Below are positions 2,371 to 62,962 of a stretch of DNA of 64,000 nucleotides, piece after piece. The notes beneath the pieces are model-generated. The model was not told the origin of the DNA, did not search any database, and worked only from the letters and a program-made list of their open reading frames with translations. How positions within the stretch are numbered: position 1 is the stretch's first letter; each line of letters opens with the position of its first letter. A program made the translations under genes and the position numbers. This DNA is from Patescibacteria group bacterium (GTDB lineage Bacteria > Patescibacteriota > Patescibacteriia > CAIXNZ01), in assembly GCA_028714455.1 (NCBI GenBank), contig JAQTMG010000002.1:102047-166046 (forward strand), read 5' to 3'.

Positions 2371-2455
2371 GCCCTTTGTCATTCCGAACCGCAGTGAGGA
2401 ATCCAGGACTTATGGATTCCACGCTACGCTCTGAATGACTATTGCGACAAAGGGC
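2371..2455. repeat. solo palindromic element related to the inverted repeats that flank the GIY-YIG gene at 59.7 kb
   Basis: GTCATTCCGAACCGCAGTGAGGAATCC and GGATTCCACGCTACGCTCTGAATGAC are nested inside CCCTTTGTC/GACAAAGGG arms. The arms match the repeats at 59694-59721 and 60075-60099. Confidence 0.6.
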
Positions 2456-2463
2456 ATTAATTT

Positions 2464-3921
2464 ATGGAACTTAACCAACTCACAATCAGAGAAGCTCACG
2501 AAAAGCTGCAAAACGGCGAGATTTCCAGTTTAGAATTGGTCAATGCTTGCATTGAGCGCATCAAAAAGACTGACAAAAAGTTGCACTGCTTTTTAGCCAC
2601 TGATTTTGATAACGCGATTAAACAAGCCAAGGAGGTTGATAAGAAAATCAAAAAAGGCGAGAAAATAAAAATGCTGGAAGGTATTCCTTGCGGCATTAAG
2701 GATTTGATTTTAACCAAAGGCATTACCACAACTGCTTCTTCAAAAATGCTGGAACATTATGTGCCCTTGTTTGACGCCACGGTCATTAAGCGACTAAAAG
2801 ATAACGGCGCCATTATTTTAGGCAAGCAAAATTGCGATGCCTGGGGTCATGGCGGTTCAACTGAAAATTCAGATTATGGACCAACGCATAACCCCTGGGA
2901 TTTAACTAGGGTACCAGGGGGTTCTTCTGGCGGCAGCGCAGCTGCTACTGTTTCTGACCAGGTTATTTATTCATTGGGTACAGATACTGGTGGTTCAATC
3001 CGCTGTCCGGGAGCGCATTGTGGCGTGGTTGGCTTTAAGCCCACTTATGGCCGAGTACCGCGTTTTGGCGCCGTGGCCATGGGTTCTTCTTTGGACACAA
3101 TCGGACCGCTCGCCAAATGCGTTGATGATGCAGCCATTGTTTTAAACGCCATTGCCGGCCTGGACGCTAATGATGGCACAACCCTACCTAAACCAGTGCC
3201 TGACTACACTAAAATGAAAGATAAAGGCGTGAAAGGCCTGACCATTGGTTTACCCAAAGAGGCGTTTGGCAAGGGCTTGCAACCAGAAGTTAAAGCGGCA
3301 ATTGACAAAGCAGTTGAAGATTTGAAAAAGCTGGGCGCGAAATTTAAAGAGGTCTCTTTGAAATATATTGATTATGGCTTGGCTTGTTATTACATTATTA
3401 TGCCTTCAGAGGTTTCTTCAAATTTGGGAAGATATGACGGCATTAGATATGGCCATCAATCAAAGGAAGCTGATAATTTGTTTGAAGTTTATACCAAATC
3501 ACGCGCCGAGGGTTTTGGCGCCGAAGCCAAGCGCAGAATCATGATCGGCACTTATGTTTTGTCAGCCGGTTATTATGACGCTTATTATAAAAAAGCCATG
3601 CAAGTGCGCACCCTGATTAAAGAGGATTTTGAAAAAGTTTTGAGCGAAGTTGATTTGATTTTAATGCCCACCTCGCCTCGGCCTGCTTTTAAACTCGGCG
3701 AAAATACCAGTGATCCACTGACAATGTATCTGGAAGATATTTATACCGTGACTATAAACATGGCTGGCGTACCAGCTGCTTCAATTCCATGCGGTTTTGT
3801 GAATAATCTGCCAGTTGGTATGCAGCTGATTGCAAAACAATTAGGCGAAGAAAAGATTTTTCAGGCGGCTTATGCTTATGAAGCGGTTAATGGCTGGAAC
3901 AAGGTTAAACCAAAACTTTAA
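2464..3921 (+). CDS. gatA: Asp/Glu-tRNA amidotransferase subunit A (amidase)
   Basis: Amidase signature GGSSGGSAAA with Ser-cisSer-Lys context. Confidence 0.9.
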   Translation: MELNQLTIREAHEKLQNGEISSLELVNACIERIKKTDKKLHCFLATDFDNAIKQAKEVDKKIKKGEKIKMLEGIPCGIKDLILTKGITTTASSKMLEHYVPLFDATVIKRLKDNGAIILGKQNCDAWGHGGSTENSDYGPTHNPWDLTRVPGGSSGGSAAATVSDQVIYSLGTDTGGSIRCPGAHCGVVGFKPTYGRVPRFGAVAMGSSLDTIGPLAKCVDDAAIVLNAIAGLDANDGTTLPKPVPDYTKMKDKGVKGLTIGLPKEAFGKGLQPEVKAAIDKAVEDLKKLGAKFKEVSLKYIDYGLACYYIIMPSEVSSNLGRYDGIRYGHQSKEADNLFEVYTKSRAEGFGAEAKRRIMIGTYVLSAGYYDAYYKKAMQVRTLIKEDFEKVLSEVDLILMPTSPRPAFKLGENTSDPLTMYLEDIYTVTINMAGVPAASIPCGFVNNLPVGMQLIAKQLGEEKIFQAAYAYEAVNGWNKVKPKL

Positions 3922-57435: not shown

Positions 57436-58519
57436 TTTTCCGCCAAAGACAGGCGGCGTGGCCAATTATTTATCTAATCTAAGCGAAAATCTGCCTCATG
57501 ACAAAATTGTTGTTTTGGCTGACAAAAGCGTGGGGCAAACACACCATCATGAAATCAAATACCGATTAATCAAAGAGGATTTATTTTACAGATTCTTCTG
57601 GCCGCGCTGGTTAAAAACTTGCTTTGTCGCGAAGAAAATTATTGATCAAGAAAAAATAGAGCAGGTTATCATCAGCCACGTTTTACCCATGGGCTATGTG
57701 GCTATGTTGCTTGGCTTGCCATATTTTGTAATTTTACACGGACTTGACATTGTCTTGGCCAAGAAATCCATCTGGAAAAGATATTGGCTTAAAAAAATAT
57801 TAAATAGAGCAAAGCACGTTATCATCAATAGTAATTTTACTAAAAAAGAAGTATTGGATATTGGGATTTCTGAAGATAAAATTACTATTGTTAATCCTTG
57901 TCCCAATTTTCAAAAAATGATCATTAACGAAACTGAAAAACAAATTATCAAAAATGAACTGGACTTGCATCATAAAAAAATTCTTTTGTCAGTGGGCCGT
58001 CTTATTCCAAGGAAGGGTTTTGATAAAGTGATTGAAACCTTACCTCAAGTTTTAAAACAGGTTCCCAGCCTAGTTTATCTGATTGTCGGCAGGGGACCAG
58101 ACCGAGAACGCCTGGAAAAACTGGCAGAAAAACTAAGCGTTCTGGGCAACATCACGATTGTTGAGGACGTGCCAGATTCAAATCTGCCGGTTTATTATGA
58201 TTTAGCCGATGTTTTTATTATGCCATCAAGAATTGTAAATAAAACCGATGTTGAGGGCTTTGGCATTGTTTATCTGGAAGCCAATCTTTTGGGCAAGCCG
58301 GTTATTGCTGGCAAAAGCGGAGGAGTAGAAGACGCAGTTATTGATAACCAGACGGGCATTTTAGTAAATCCCGAGGACGCCAATGCCATCGCCATTGCCA
58401 TTATTAAACTTTTTTCCGATGAAAATCTGGCGAACACATTAGGTGTTCAGGGCAAAGCAAGGGTCTTAAATGAATTTTGCTGGTCAAAACAAATTGCCAA
58501 GATTGAAAATATTTTATGA
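57407..58519 (+). CDS. glycosyltransferase family 4 (GT-B)
   Basis: EGFGIVYLEANLLGKPVIAGKSGG. Confidence 0.75.
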   Translation: MKKSLLITNDFPPKTGGVANYLSNLSENLPHDKIVVLADKSVGQTHHHEIKYRLIKEDLFYRFFWPRWLKTCFVAKKIIDQEKIEQVIISHVLPMGYVAMLLGLPYFVILHGLDIVLAKKSIWKRYWLKKILNRAKHVIINSNFTKKEVLDIGISEDKITIVNPCPNFQKMIINETEKQIIKNELDLHHKKILLSVGRLIPRKGFDKVIETLPQVLKQVPSLVYLIVGRGPDRERLEKLAEKLSVLGNITIVEDVPDSNLPVYYDLADVFIMPSRIVNKTDVEGFGIVYLEANLLGKPVIAGKSGGVEDAVIDNQTGILVNPEDANAIAIAIIKLFSDENLANTLGVQGKARVLNEFCWSKQIAKIENIL

Positions 58520-59694
58520 ACCAAAATCAAAAACTAAACATTTTAATGTTTAACATGTCCAAATATAGCGATTGGCAAAAAGGTGTAGTCAATCGCAATT
58601 TTCATATTTTACATAATTTAGCTAAGCGTGATGAAATTAATAAAATAATTGCGGTTGATTTTTTACCTTTTAATTGGAAAAGAGCAATAAAAACTTTTAT
58701 CTACGACCAGATTTTAAAAGACACAAGAGGCACAATTTGTTTTGGGGATTTAACTTCTCAATGCTGGCAAATCTCCAGCAAAATTTTAGTCTATTCAACT
58801 ATTGATTCTATTTTAAATAAAAAAAGAATTATTACGGAATTAAAAAGAATTTTAGACAAAGAGGGGATGAATAATAATTTGATCGTCTGGAACTACAATC
58901 CAATGTATATTGATTATTTTAACCAATTCAAGCAAAGGCTAAATATCTTTGACACGGTCGACAATTGGCTTGAACATTCAAGCTATCAAGAATATAAAAA
59001 TTTACTTCAGAAAAATTACGACACAATTAAGGATGGCAGTGATCTGATTTTTACCGTTTCAGAAAACTTGAAACAAAATCTTTTTAACAACCAGGAAAGC
59101 GCTCACTGGATTCCGAATGCCGTTGATTTGGATTATTTCCAAAACCAGACAAACATCTCGCCAAAATTACAGAATATTCCCAAACCGATTATCGGTTTTC
59201 TGGGAATTTTACAAGACAGAATTGATCTTGAAATTCTGCTAAATTTAGCCAAAAATAACCCTGAAAAATCTTTAATTTTAGCCGGTCCTGTTTGGAAAAA
59301 TTTTCCCAGAGAAAAATTTAACGGCTTAAAAAATGTTTATTTTCTTGGCCCAATAGGTTACTCGGAAATTCCGTCGCTTTATAACGGCTTTGACGTCGGC
59401 ATTATTCCATACAAAATCAACGCCTTCATCAAATCAACTGATCCCATGAAATATTATGAATATCTGGCGGCCAATTTGCCGGTGGTTTCAACTCCGGCGC
59501 CGGGCATTGAAAGATTTGGCAATTTAATTAAAGTTGCCAAAACACCCGAAGAATTTAATGTAATGGTTAATCAAGCCTTGAGTGAAGGAAAAGATAGGCA
59601 AAGAGAAGAAAGAATAAAGATTCTTCAAAATAATACGTGGGGCGACAGAATTGAAGAAATGTTAAAATTAATAAACGCAAGGTGGTCCACATAG
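58516..59694 (+). CDS. GT-B-fold glycosyltransferase
   Basis: C-terminal GT1-like nucleotide-sugar binding region. Confidence 0.55.
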   Translation: MNQNQKLNILMFNMSKYSDWQKGVVNRNFHILHNLAKRDEINKIIAVDFLPFNWKRAIKTFIYDQILKDTRGTICFGDLTSQCWQISSKILVYSTIDSILNKKRIITELKRILDKEGMNNNLIVWNYNPMYIDYFNQFKQRLNIFDTVDNWLEHSSYQEYKNLLQKNYDTIKDGSDLIFTVSENLKQNLFNNQESAHWIPNAVDLDYFQNQTNISPKLQNIPKPIIGFLGILQDRIDLEILLNLAKNNPEKSLILAGPVWKNFPREKFNGLKNVYFLGPIGYSEIPSLYNGFDVGIIPYKINAFIKSTDPMKYYEYLAANLPVVSTPAPGIERFGNLIKVAKTPEEFNVMVNQALSEGKDRQREERIKILQNNTWGDRIEEMLKLINARWST

Positions 59695-60099
59695 TCATTC
59701 CGAGCGTAGCGCGAGGAATCCATAACATCGATTAATATGAAACAATATTGCGTTTACATAATGACTAACAAAAGTGACTCCGTGGATTATACCGGCATAA
59801 CGAATAATTTATTTCGAAGAGTATACGAGCATAAAACCCATTTTAATGAGAAGAGTTTTACTTCAAAATATAATATCAATAAATTAGTTTATTTTGAGGA
59901 ATATAATAATCCCGATCAAGCCATATACAGAGAAAAGCAAATAAAGGGCTTGAGTAGAGAAAAAAAATTTAATTTAATAAAAACTATCAATCCTGATTTT
60001 AATGATTTGGCCAGAGATTGGTATAAAGATAGCCAGGCCGAGCGCAAAGAACAACCGACTCAACCTAAATCATAGATTCCACGCTGCGCTCTGAATGAC
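59694..60099 (+). mobile_element. GIY-YIG nuclease cassette bracketed by about 27-bp imperfect inverted repeats
   Basis: Left repeat GTCATTCCGAGCGTAGCGCGAGGAATCC at 59694-59721. Right repeat GGATTCCACGCTGCGCTCTGAATGAC at 60075-60099. A gene-less copy of the same repeats lies at 2371-2455. Confidence 0.55.
59737..60075 (+). CDS. GIY-YIG family nuclease (COG2827-like)
   Basis: YCVYIMTN...DYTGITNNLFRRVYEHK GIY...YIG motifs. Confidence 0.75.
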   Translation: MKQYCVYIMTNKSDSVDYTGITNNLFRRVYEHKTHFNEKSFTSKYNINKLVYFEEYNNPDQAIYREKQIKGLSREKKFNLIKTINPDFNDLARDWYKDSQAERKEQPTQPKS

Positions 60100-60125
60100 A
60101 GTTGTGGCTCGGCTTTTGCAAAAAT

Positions 60126-60995
60126 ATGGATTTATCAATAATAATTGTAAATTGGAACGTCAAAGACTTGCTACGAAAATGTCTGCAATCAATCTATAAA
60201 AAAACTCAAGGCCTTGAATTTGAAGTTTTTGTAGTTGATAACGCCTCAAAAGATAATTCAATTCAAATGGTTTTAAAAGAATTTCCTCAAGCAACTTTAA
60301 TCGCTTCAAATGTAAATCTGGGTTTCGCCAGAGCCAATAATCTAGCGCTCGAACAGGCCAGAGGAAAATATATTTTATTCATGAATCCAGATATGGAGCT
60401 GGTTGAAAATTCTTTTCCTAAATTAATTGAACTAATGGATAAGGATCCAAAAATCGCTTTGTCCACTTGCCAATTAATTTATCCTGACAGCTCCAGGCAA
60501 AATAATGTTAAAAATAACCCTGGATTTTGCGACCAATTTTTAATCCTCTTAAAACTCCATCATCTTTTTCAACCACGATGCTTAAAGAGATATTTGGCCA
60601 AGGATTTTGATTATTCCAAAGAACAAGAAGTTCGGCAAATAATGGGCGCTTTTATTTTTGCCAATGGCGAGATAATAAAAAAACTTGGCGGCTGGGATAC
60701 TGAATATTTTCTTTGGTGGGAAGATTTGGATTTATGCAAAAGAGTACAGGATACCGGTTATAAAATTGTTTACACGCCAAGCACAAAAGTTATACATTAT
60801 GAAGCCAAGGCCTTTGAGCAGCAACCTAGTTTGGAAAAACAAAAAAGATTTAATAGGGGAATGAGAATATATTTTAAAAAACATTTTGGTTTATTGGTTT
60901 ATTGGTTTATTGGTTTATTGGGGTTTATAAGCTTGGGTCTAGCCTGGTTGAGTCAGATCTTTAAAATCAAGCCAAAAACGCAATCAAAGTTATAG
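60126..60995 (+). CDS. glycosyltransferase family 2
   Basis: LSIIIVNWNVKDLL, DNASKDNS and a DxD-type FMNPD motif. ATG at 60126 preferred over 60102. Confidence 0.75.
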   Translation: MDLSIIIVNWNVKDLLRKCLQSIYKKTQGLEFEVFVVDNASKDNSIQMVLKEFPQATLIASNVNLGFARANNLALEQARGKYILFMNPDMELVENSFPKLIELMDKDPKIALSTCQLIYPDSSRQNNVKNNPGFCDQFLILLKLHHLFQPRCLKRYLAKDFDYSKEQEVRQIMGAFIFANGEIIKKLGGWDTEYFLWWEDLDLCKRVQDTGYKIVYTPSTKVIHYEAKAFEQQPSLEKQKRFNRGMRIYFKKHFGLLVYWFIGLLGFISLGLAWLSQIFKIKPKTQSKL

Positions 60996-61501: not shown

Positions 61502-62962
61502 ATGTCAGATATAACAAATCTCTTAAAAAATAATAAAATCCAAATATTTTTGGCTATTTTAATCATTGAAATACTTTCTTTAATTAGTTTTAAAATTACC
61601 TGGCTTTCAGGAATATTTTTTGTCTTAATCTGTCTAGGCGTTTTAATTTTAACCTGGCGCAAATTAGAAAATGGCGTCTTGATTGCCTTGGCTGAATTGA
61701 TAATTGGCTCACAAGGATATTTATTTTATCTGATGTTACCCGGATTTAAGGTCTCAATTCGTCTGGGAATTTTTCTGATTGTATTTTTTGTCTGGTTATT
61801 TAAATATTTCAACTTCAGGAATTTCCTCAATTTATTGAGGAAGGATAGGCTAGTTCAAAATTTCATTTTACTTTTAGTTTTTATTGCTTTTGGCGCAATC
61901 AATGGTTTAATTCACAAAAATGGCGCTAGCAATGTTTTTTTTGATCTAAACGGTTATTTATATTTCGGACTCTTTTTTGTCTTTCTGGATGCTTTCAAGG
62001 ATAAAGAATTACCCAATAAATTTATTAATGTTTTACTTGCCGCTTTAACCTATGTTTCTCTGGAAATATTTTTTACTCTTTATATTTTCTCACATTCAAT
62101 TCCATATTTGCCTGATTTATTTTACCACTGGATTCGCGATACCAGGGTAGGGGAGATTACTTATGCCGGCGCTAATTTTTTCCGCGTTTTTTTCCAGTCG
62201 CAAATCTGGACGCTGGAAAGTATATTTATTATTCTATGCATTCTGTTATTAAATAAAAAGTCCAAGTGGCTATATATTCTCTTAATCTTTCTTCAAACTT
62301 CCATTCTAATCAGTTTTGCCCGCAGTTTCTGGCTTGGCGGCGCCGTGGCTATGGCGTTTTTATTCGGTTATTTAATTTACACTCGAATAAAAGAATGGCA
62401 GAAATTATTAAAAAATATTGGCTTAATGATTAGCGCTGCTATTCTAAGTGTTGTCTTGATTTTCGCGATTGCCAATTTTCCATTACCCAAACCCACGGCT
62501 TATTTTACGGCTGATATGTTAGTTGGCAGATTTACTCTGTTTAGCGATGCCGCTGCTTCTAGCCGCTGGCAAGAGCTGCCAGTGATTTTGGAAAAAATAA
62601 AAACCAGCCCCATTTTTGGCGCTGGCTTTGGTTCCACTATTACTTATAAAACCGAGGATCCGCGAATCAAAAATACCGATAATCCAGAAGGCTGGTATAC
62701 CACCTACACTTTTGAATGGGGTTTTTTAGATACGATTACGGAAATTGGTATTATTGGTTTATTGGTTTATTTAGTTTTTATCGGCCAGATCTTTTATCTG
62801 GGGCTTAAGGGCAGGGGAGAGAATTGGCTAAAAATTGGTTTGTTACTCGGTTTGATTGCTTTAGTAATAACTAATATCTCCAGTCCATATTTGAATCATC
62901 CACTGGGTATTGGCTATTTGCTTCTCTGTGCTGGAATATTTGAATCAAGATTGTCCGATTAA
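61502..62962 (+). CDS. O-antigen ligase/polymerase-like (Wzy_C-like) membrane protein
   Basis: About twelve transmembrane helices with a periplasmic loop. Located in the polysaccharide cluster. Confidence 0.5.
   Translation: MSDITNLLKNNKIQIFLAILIIEILSLISFKITWLSGIFFVLICLGVLILTWRKLENGVLIALAELIIGSQGYLFYLMLPGFKVSIRLGIFLIVFFVWLFKYFNFRNFLNLLRKDRLVQNFILLLVFIAFGAINGLIHKNGASNVFFDLNGYLYFGLFFVFLDAFKDKELPNKFINVLLAALTYVSLEIFFTLYIFSHSIPYLPDLFYHWIRDTRVGEITYAGANFFRVFFQSQIWTLESIFIILCILLLNKKSKWLYILLIFLQTSILISFARSFWLGGAVAMAFLFGYLIYTRIKEWQKLLKNIGLMISAAILSVVLIFAIANFPLPKPTAYFTADMLVGRFTLFSDAAASSRWQELPVILEKIKTSPIFGAGFGSTITYKTEDPRIKNTDNPEGWYTTYTFEWGFLDTITEIGIIGLLVYLVFIGQIFYLGLKGRGENWLKIGLLLGLIALVITNISSPYLNHPLGIGYLLLCAGIFESRLSD

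Follow-up and report, generated by a model that had tools for sequence, protein, structure and literature searches.

The 112-amino-acid (aa) product of an open reading frame (ORF) in a stretch of contig JAQTMG010000002.1, from a Patescibacteria group bacterium, is probably a site-specific single-stranded DNA (ssDNA) nuclease of the Ssn family (SsnA-like), and four hairpin-type repeat units of about 26-28 nucleotides found in the same stretch would be its cognate recognition repeats. We put the probability of this reading, which is drawn from sequence comparison, at about 0.8; the window referred to throughout is the whole stretch analysed, 64,000 nucleotides (nt) or 64 kb. Two of the units, C and D, enclose the gene within a polysaccharide cluster and the other two, A and B, form a gene-less pair between gatC and gatA (Table 1). 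The locus is a further example, in a candidate-phylum (Falkowbacteria-like) bacterium, of the Ssn system reported in 2025, and no new kind of system.

Ssn proteins form a family of single-domain GIY-YIG nucleases of about 100 aa, equated with CDD cd10448 (Chenal et al. 2025, Nat Commun, PMC11893778). They bind an oriented hairpin repeat of about 28 nt as ssDNA only and cut a few nt 5' of the repeat, which is named NTS in Neisseria and SRM in general, and ssn genes are typically flanked by it (PMC11893778). The Neisseria enzyme, SsnA, is inactive on RNA, and both the NTS-ssnA-NTS layout and the hypothesis of an insertion sequence (IS)-like or domesticated element are already found in that study (PMC11893778). 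A literature search for follow-ups on Ssn or on its mobility found none.

The nuclease gene and its repeat units

The GIY-YIG domain PF01541 was the sole domain detected in the 112-aa protein by Pfam and NCBIfam scans, with no specific family match in NCBIfam, and the length of the protein falls under the 150 aa that the Ssn family criterion sets as its limit. Membership of the family is further defined by a BLASTP match to Neisseria SsnA with E<1e-10 and at least 75% query cover. As a stand-in for N. meningitidis SsnA we used the gonococcal orthologue, a 94-aa ORF (L012:1498-1782; L numbers denote the loci compared) taken from an N. gonorrhoeae chromosome filed in the PLSDB database, and the pairwise BLASTP match to it lay within this cut-off, with 38% identity over residues 2-92 of 94 and E=2e-22. 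In a 12-sequence family alignment that includes the gonococcal SsnA, residues Y7, Y18, G20, R28, H32, E66 and N85 are invariant. A tblastn search with the gonococcal protein matched a single locus in the window (E=5e-17), and the best database relative of the 112-aa protein, with 94% identity, is annotated from a Candidatus Falkowbacteria metagenome-assembled genome (MAG). Among structures in the PDB, those of UPF0213/YhbQ match only weakly (E=0.002) and no Ssn structure was among the matches.

The earlier note had suggested a small mobile GIY-YIG cassette; by sequence the protein is SsnA-like and no generic homing or mobile nuclease, with the repeats as putative cognate recognition hairpins. 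In its strict form the homing alternative would have a free-standing endonuclease of the Seg/I-TevI type invading the polysaccharide operon, the repeats being remnants of the target or insertion site; the GIY-YIG domain, the intergenic position in an operon and the presence/absence polymorphism described below are all compatible with it. Homing endonucleases of this class, I-TevI and Seg, have their nuclease domain joined to a DNA-binding domain and are typically phage- or intron-borne. The protein studied here has only 112 aa and no DNA-binding or linker domain, no phage homologues were found at E<1e-8, its membership of the SsnA clade is clear, and repeats of this kind are also present at a distance from any nuclease gene, both at gatC-gatA and in a Wzy gene of a relative (L001). 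We consider a homing origin extremely unlikely.

The repeats themselves follow one plan: an (N)GTC tag, an ATTC(C) stem, a tandem G.A internal loop, a short GC inner stem, a loop of 3-4 nt, a GGAAT stem and a C. The published NTS is CGTCATTCCCGCGMAVGCGGGAATCYRG (PMC11893778), and unit C, aligned with it, reads aGTCATTCC-GA-GCGTAGCGC-GA-GGAATCCat; judged by this alignment, unit C is essentially an NTS with a 5'-GA/GA-3' internal loop added in the stem. In Neisseria, cleavage requires the 3 nt 5' of the palindrome, and binding depends most on the C that lies 3' of it (PMC11893778); all four units retain both determinants, GTC on the 5' side and C on the 3' side. Oriented NTS-like hairpins with these determinants stand on either side of the gene, and the same holds for the homologous genes of L001, L002 and L003.

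Both pairs in the window are arranged head-to-head with their tags outward, one around the nuclease gene and one, of about 85 nt, without a gene. The left arm, GTCATTCCGAGCGTAGCGCGAGGAATCC, occurs exactly at 59694-59721, with 0 matches expected by chance (none in 100 shuffles), and the right arm, at 60076-60099 on the minus strand, reads AGATTCCACGC..., not GGATTCC... as first quoted, the GG form being that of the copy at 2413-2439. Over 18 nt (59694-59711 and 60082-60099) the arms around the gene are 89% complementary. At gatC-gatA, units A (2378-2405) and B (2414-2439) lie 8 nt apart within a perfect 10-nt palindrome, GCCCTTTGTC (2371-2380) and GACAAAGGGC (2446-2455), and the Pfam matches of the neighbours, PF02686 and PF01425, confirm a GatC and a GatA-type amidase. 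The observations of the earlier note thus hold for the 112-aa GIY-YIG gene between a glycosyltransferase and a GT2 gene, for the inverted repeats around it and for the gene-less copy between gatC and gatA, and its suggestion that gene, flanking units and gene-less pair belong to one repeat system is supported. It had also called for mapping further copies of the motif: within the 64-kb window the gene-less pair at gatC-gatA was recovered, and neither strict nor relaxed scans gave any credible unit beyond the total of four. No Rfam family was found at the gene site or at the gatC-gatA site at the gathering threshold.

The four units differ in detail. The inner stems of A and C are related by compensatory changes, GCG/CGC to AC/GT; the tag is TGTC in A and D and AGTC in B and C; and the GGAAT stem is followed by CCA in A, B and C and by CTA in D. 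The left units A and C have a GA...GA internal loop, and the right units B and D, which are nearly identical to each other, have GA...GT and are 2 nt shorter. This asymmetry, which L001 shares, was rejected as a defining feature, since the right unit of L008 ends GA...GA and both units of L028 end GT.

Several observations weigh against the assignment to Ssn. An identity of 38% alone gives no guarantee of ssDNA specificity, and there are just four unit copies in 64 kb. The published degenerate SRM pattern, HGTCWYN(0-2)YYVSBRHN(0-5)WNVSBRGN(0-2)RNCYNB, which as a membership criterion was tested within 500 bp on both sides of the gene, matches none of the four units and nothing in the whole window; our implementation recovers 9 canonical NTS around gonococcal ssnA as a positive control, and the pattern misses the four units because of the GA/GA internal loop. 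By nearest-neighbour DNA energies, unit C taken singly is predicted to fold as ssDNA with −4.9 kcal/mol (z=−1.9) into a 5-bp stem, a 2x2 GA loop, a 3-bp stem and a triloop, as compared with −8.9 kcal/mol for the canonical NTS, but units B and D are predicted not to fold alone and A only weakly, so that the model of individual hairpins is well supported only for C and by the covariation within the family described below. The A/B dimer as ssDNA is predicted to form one long hairpin (−20.8 kcal/mol, z=−5.2). Finally, Neisseria SsnA loses activity when the sequence of the palindrome is altered though its structure is kept (PMC11893778), and the specificity of the enzyme studied here must therefore differ.

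Table 1. Nuclease gene, repeat units and associated motifs, with positions counted from the first letter of the window.
Feature	Position	Strand	Support
ssnA-like gene, 112-aa putative single-domain GIY-YIG nuclease	59737..60075	+	Pfam PF01541 E=3e-14, residues 3-79
Left unit C, aGTCATTCC-GA-GCG-TAG-CGC-GA-GGAATCCa	59693..59721	+	Exact match; L001 and L002 have the homologous unit in this position
Right unit D, on its own strand tGTCATTCAGAGCGCAGCGTGGAATC, tag outward (rightward)	60076..60100	-	Almost the same sequence as unit B and as the right unit in L001
Unit A, tGTCATTCC-GA-AC(CGCA)GT-GA-GGAATCC, left half of head-to-head dimer	2377..2405	+	Conserved in L008 and L009
Unit B, aGTCATTCAGAGCGTAGCGTGGAATCC, right half of dimer, tag outward	2414..2440	-	Repeat scans of the window
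Gene-less dimer between gatC (2048-2368) and gatA (2464-3921)	2371..2455	.	Perfect 10-nt palindrome ends, 100% complementary
GCTCGG box, beyond unit D by 8 nt (CCGAGC when read on the strand of the unit, 5' of its tag)	60108..60113	.	Recurs in relatives

The gene lies in a same-strand polysaccharide cluster with the order flippase, glycosyltransferase (GT) 4, GT1, GIY-YIG ORF, GT2 and Wzy-like gene (61502-62962). The GT1-type gene upstream (58516-59694) ends in a TAG stop codon (59692-59694) that abuts the tag of unit C, the stop codon of the nuclease gene (TAG, 60073-60075) falls inside the right unit D, and the GT2 gene downstream has its ATG at 60126. In L001 the GT1 ORF runs into the left unit (…PHSHSER*), with its stop at L001:9974-9976 in the loop of the unit. 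The GCTCGG box is also present near right-hand units in L001, L002 and L003 (three times), at 6-10 nt outside the unit, and it is situated a few nt past the cut site expected for the Neisseria enzyme.

Unit architecture among metagenomic relatives

We examined 80 metagenomic loci (L015-L094) encoding relatives of the 112-aa protein with 47-67% identity, by using a strict grammar, GTCA-N4-GA-interior-GA-N4'-T, and a relaxed one, GTC[AT]-N4-GA…G[AT]/AA-N4'-T. The strict grammar gives a unit density of 2.45/kb up to 250 nt from the gene versus 0.26/kb elsewhere. With the relaxed grammar, 69/80 loci have a unit no further than 250 nt from the gene, and 50/73 have units flanking it on either side; the corresponding densities are 5.5/kb near the gene, 0.5/kb far from it and 0.08/kb in shuffles, an enrichment of about 10-fold near versus far. 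Tags-outward is the commonest arrangement among these units, and the published SRM pattern finds 0 units over the same 250 nt beside the gene for the 80 relatives. Of 135 matches selected by the anchors only, 80 have perfectly complementary 4-nt stems, versus 0.4% expected, with 13 different stem sequences, and the interiors of these matches are small hairpins themselves. This covariation gives strong support for an architecture of stem, G.A loop and stem. Those loci without strict matches that we inspected carry further unit variants; in L058, a plain CGTCATTCCGG…CCGGAAT hairpin has no G.A loop and is also missed by the published pattern.

A homologue 62% identical to the 112-aa protein is encoded on a Planktothrix agardhii plasmid (NZ_LR882964.1:18847-19131, L014), between an MmeI-type restriction-modification gene and the DISARM gene drmA, which is a defence-island context, and the published NTS and SRM patterns give no match within 1 kb of it. 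With respect to plasmid records, NZ_CP119140.1 and NZ_CP119142.1 in PLSDB (N. gonorrhoeae, about 2.17 Mb) are whole chromosomes listed as plasmids, and multi-Mb records of Aeromonas and Sinorhizobium are likewise present, a pitfall for plasmid statistics.

Presence, absence and mobility of gene and repeats

Comparison with relatives lacking the insertion, which the earlier note had recommended, revealed polymorphism at both sites. In the sister genome L001, a Candidatus Falkowbacteria MAG (JAFGMD010000021.1), the Ssn protein is 92% identical and occupies the same GT1-GT2 slot with the same units, the neighbouring proteins being about 80% identical; in L002 the slot and the left and right units are again the same, with 72% identity for Ssn and 64-74% for the neighbours. 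The divergence of Ssn in these two loci tracks that of its neighbours, which indicates long vertical inheritance and not a recent hop. L004, the nearest relative when judged by GT1 identity (85%), lacks the gene at the GT1-GT2 junction, and its 86-nt spacer there (L004:1129-1214) contains two units of another stem variant; a reading of these as decayed units was rejected, as both hairpins are intact. The gene is also missing from the junction in L006 and L007, with unrelated spacers, and in L003 a 68%-identical homologue is found in another context, after a Xer/phage-integrase gene and before type IV secretion system (T4SS)-pilin-like genes. The slot of the gene is old, yet not fixed.

Units of these relatives also vary internally. 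In L002 (5903-6000) the left unit is split by an AT-rich insert of about 45 nt, in L003 (5840-6000) an upstream left-type unit encloses a GC-rich insert of about 55 nt, and downstream in L003 (6340-6640) a tandem repeat of about 109 nt is present twice, each copy with a right-type unit that has an extended inner stem.

The gene-less dimer at gatC-gatA is conserved in a sister genome (L008); in L010 (324-393) its place is taken by a dimer of a different variant, and L011 (1786-1792) has no unit there, its gatC-gatA spacer being just 7 nt long. Stem variants at the same intergenic spots in L004 and L010 include CATT/AATG, TACT/AGTA, TGGT/ACCA and CCCT/AGGG. A further copy is found inside a gene: a head-to-head dimer of about 87 nt with 12-nt terminal inverted repeats, CCGCTCTGTCAT and ATGACAGAGCGG, lies in frame in the Wzy_C gene of L001 (L001:12756-12842), where it adds 29 aa (PLCHPERSEGSKTLGVIDSSHSFGMTERV), and the Wzy gene of the window has no such insert. 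It aligns unit-for-unit with the gatC-gatA dimer and belongs to the same element family; it also resembles the Rickettsia palindromic elements within genes. No target-site duplication was seen. The dimers are discrete, insertion-polymorphic elements in this lineage, similar to repetitive extragenic palindromic (REP) elements or MITEs, which are miniature transposable elements with inverted repeats. The gatC-gatA pair may be an empty or collapsed site or an independently inserted dimer, and the comparison fits both. For the small mobile GIY-YIG cassette proposed in the earlier note, the outcome is divided: insertion polymorphism exists at both sites, but the slot of the gene is vertically inherited.

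These comparisons also bear on the alternative that the units act at the RNA level, as terminators, attenuators or mRNA-stabilizing hairpins, and that the GIY-YIG gene lies between two of them by chance. In its favour, the units lie between genes and are transcribed together with operons, a strong RNA fold is predicted for the A/B dimer (−37 kcal/mol), and an RNA role has been proposed for REP-type repeats (PMC3733652). However, no T-tract or terminator-like call was obtained at any unit, including both sites at which ordinary terminator hairpins would have spoken against the cassette idea, and gatC-gatA as well as GT1-GT2 are operon partners that need read-through. The idea that the gatC-gatA hairpin acts as an attenuator has no support, given these findings, the 7-nt hairpin-free spacer of L011 and the inactivity of SsnA on RNA. 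An RNA-level role would also leave unexplained the enrichment of oriented units beside ssn genes and the presence of units within coding sequence, as in the Wzy gene of L001, and we regard it as very improbable.

Related repeat systems and proposed action

The closest known system is that of Ssn with NTS/SRM in N. meningitidis (PMC11893778), with which the locus shares a single-domain GIY-YIG protein of about 100 aa with conserved catalytic residues, a gene flanked on both sides by oriented repeats of about 28 nt that start (N)GTC-ATTCC and end GGAAT-C, and gene-less repeat copies elsewhere in the genome. It differs in its Falkowbacteria-like candidate-phylum host, in the G.A internal loop and short inner stem where Neisseria has a continuous 8-bp stem, and in the four copies in 64 kb compared with the dense clusters in Neisseria.

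A second likeness is with the superfamily of CGTC-tagged REPs, including dRS3 of Neisseria and RPE-4/RPE-6 of Rickettsia (Di Nocera et al. 2013, PMC3733652). These are defined by a CGTC tag (variants TGTC, CCTC), a stem of 8-9 bp starting from A-T pairs, a loop of 4-5 nt, an unpaired CCA tail and high copy number, and they mostly form head-to-head dimers with tags outward, sometimes in a longer palindrome or in frame in genes (PMC3733652). The units described here resemble them in an unpaired tag with GTC at its end (two units have TGTC), in the stem starting AT, in the CCA tail of 3/4 units, in the head-to-head, tags-outward arrangement of both window pairs and of pairs in L001, L002, L007, L008 and L010, and in in-frame insertions adding 20-30 aa, for which the L001 Wzy gene is our example. 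They are unlike them in the AGTC tag of two units and in the stem, which consists of 5 bp, G.A/A.G and 2-3 bp with a loop of 3-4 nt. In addition, no associated enzyme was found for the CGTC REPs (PMC3733652), whereas a putative Ssn gene lies between two of our units.

In layout, the locus is further comparable to the REPtrons, in which REPs or bacterial interspersed mosaic elements (BIMEs) accompany a REP-associated tyrosine transposase (RAYT), and to IS200/IS605 elements: a small gene, by analogy for an ssDNA-hairpin nuclease, lies between the hairpin repeats that it would recognise, and gene-less repeat dimers are dispersed in the genome. The enzyme is a GIY-YIG hydrolase as opposed to an HUH/Y1 transposase and the tag is GTC as opposed to GTAG, and the likeness is one of layout, not of membership. 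By this analogy, the window could contain a GIY-YIG REPtron, in which unit-ssnA-unit is an autonomous element, the dimers of about 85 nt are its miniature derivatives, and Ssn excises and inserts both via ssDNA intermediates. We hold this as a tentative possibility; it extends the assignment to Ssn rather than excluding it. The inverted ends, whose tags and predicted cut sites lie outermost, are in its favour, as are the dimer with terminal inverted repeats in the Wzy gene of L001 that is absent from the window, the empty gatC-gatA spacer of L011 and the absence of the gene from the junction in L004, L006 and L007 together with its other context in L003. CGTC REPs have been reported without a dedicated transposase (PMC3733652), and the hypothesis was voiced by the authors of the Ssn study too (PMC11893778).

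GIY-YIG nucleases, nevertheless, hydrolyse DNA. To our knowledge, strand-transfer catalysis is not known for them, nor has a joining activity been shown for Ssn, which counts against a REPtron. The slot is conserved where neighbours are 65-80% identical, with divergence in step, in agreement with vertical descent; neither target-site duplications nor phage copies were found; and host recombination or slippage at palindromes could also yield the polymorphisms. The comparative data modestly strengthen the transposon reading. That a GIY-YIG ssDNA nuclease drives a working autonomous/non-autonomous pair, active in candidate-phylum bacteria and inserting in frame in essential or envelope genes such as Wzy, appears rather unlikely at present; if true, such a pair would be a third enzymatic route to REP/MITE-like repeats, beside the DDE and HUH transposases.

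If the 112-aa protein is an Ssn nuclease, by homology the enzyme would bind the unit in ssDNA and nick a few nt 5' of the GTC tag. The predicted cuts would lie at the outer edges of each pair, immediately left of 59694 or 2378 on the plus strand and immediately right of 60099 or 2439 on the minus strand, and no action would be expected on duplex DNA or RNA. Possible sources of ssDNA are uptake during transformation, replication forks and repair. Candidate-phylum bacteria commonly encode DNA-uptake machinery, a possible supply of such ssDNA. By analogy with the model of Neisseria transformation, the outcome may be that ssDNA with such repeats is trimmed or restricted, and recombination modulated with it.

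Taken together, the data extend the system of Ssn and hairpin repeats to a Falkowbacteria-like lineage. The published SRM pattern overlooks a branch of the family with G.A-loop hairpins, and surveys of the association between Ssn and repeats will consequently under-count it. The relatives would offer a new pair of nuclease and site specificity for the ssDNA-cutting tools that are being developed from the Ssn family. The presence or absence of the gene at one junction, that of the dimer at gatC-gatA and the in-frame occurrence of the same dimer in the Wzy gene of a sister genome bear on the mobility of the repeats, and the same comparisons bear on whether Ssn is the 'missing' enzyme of the CGTC-type REPs.

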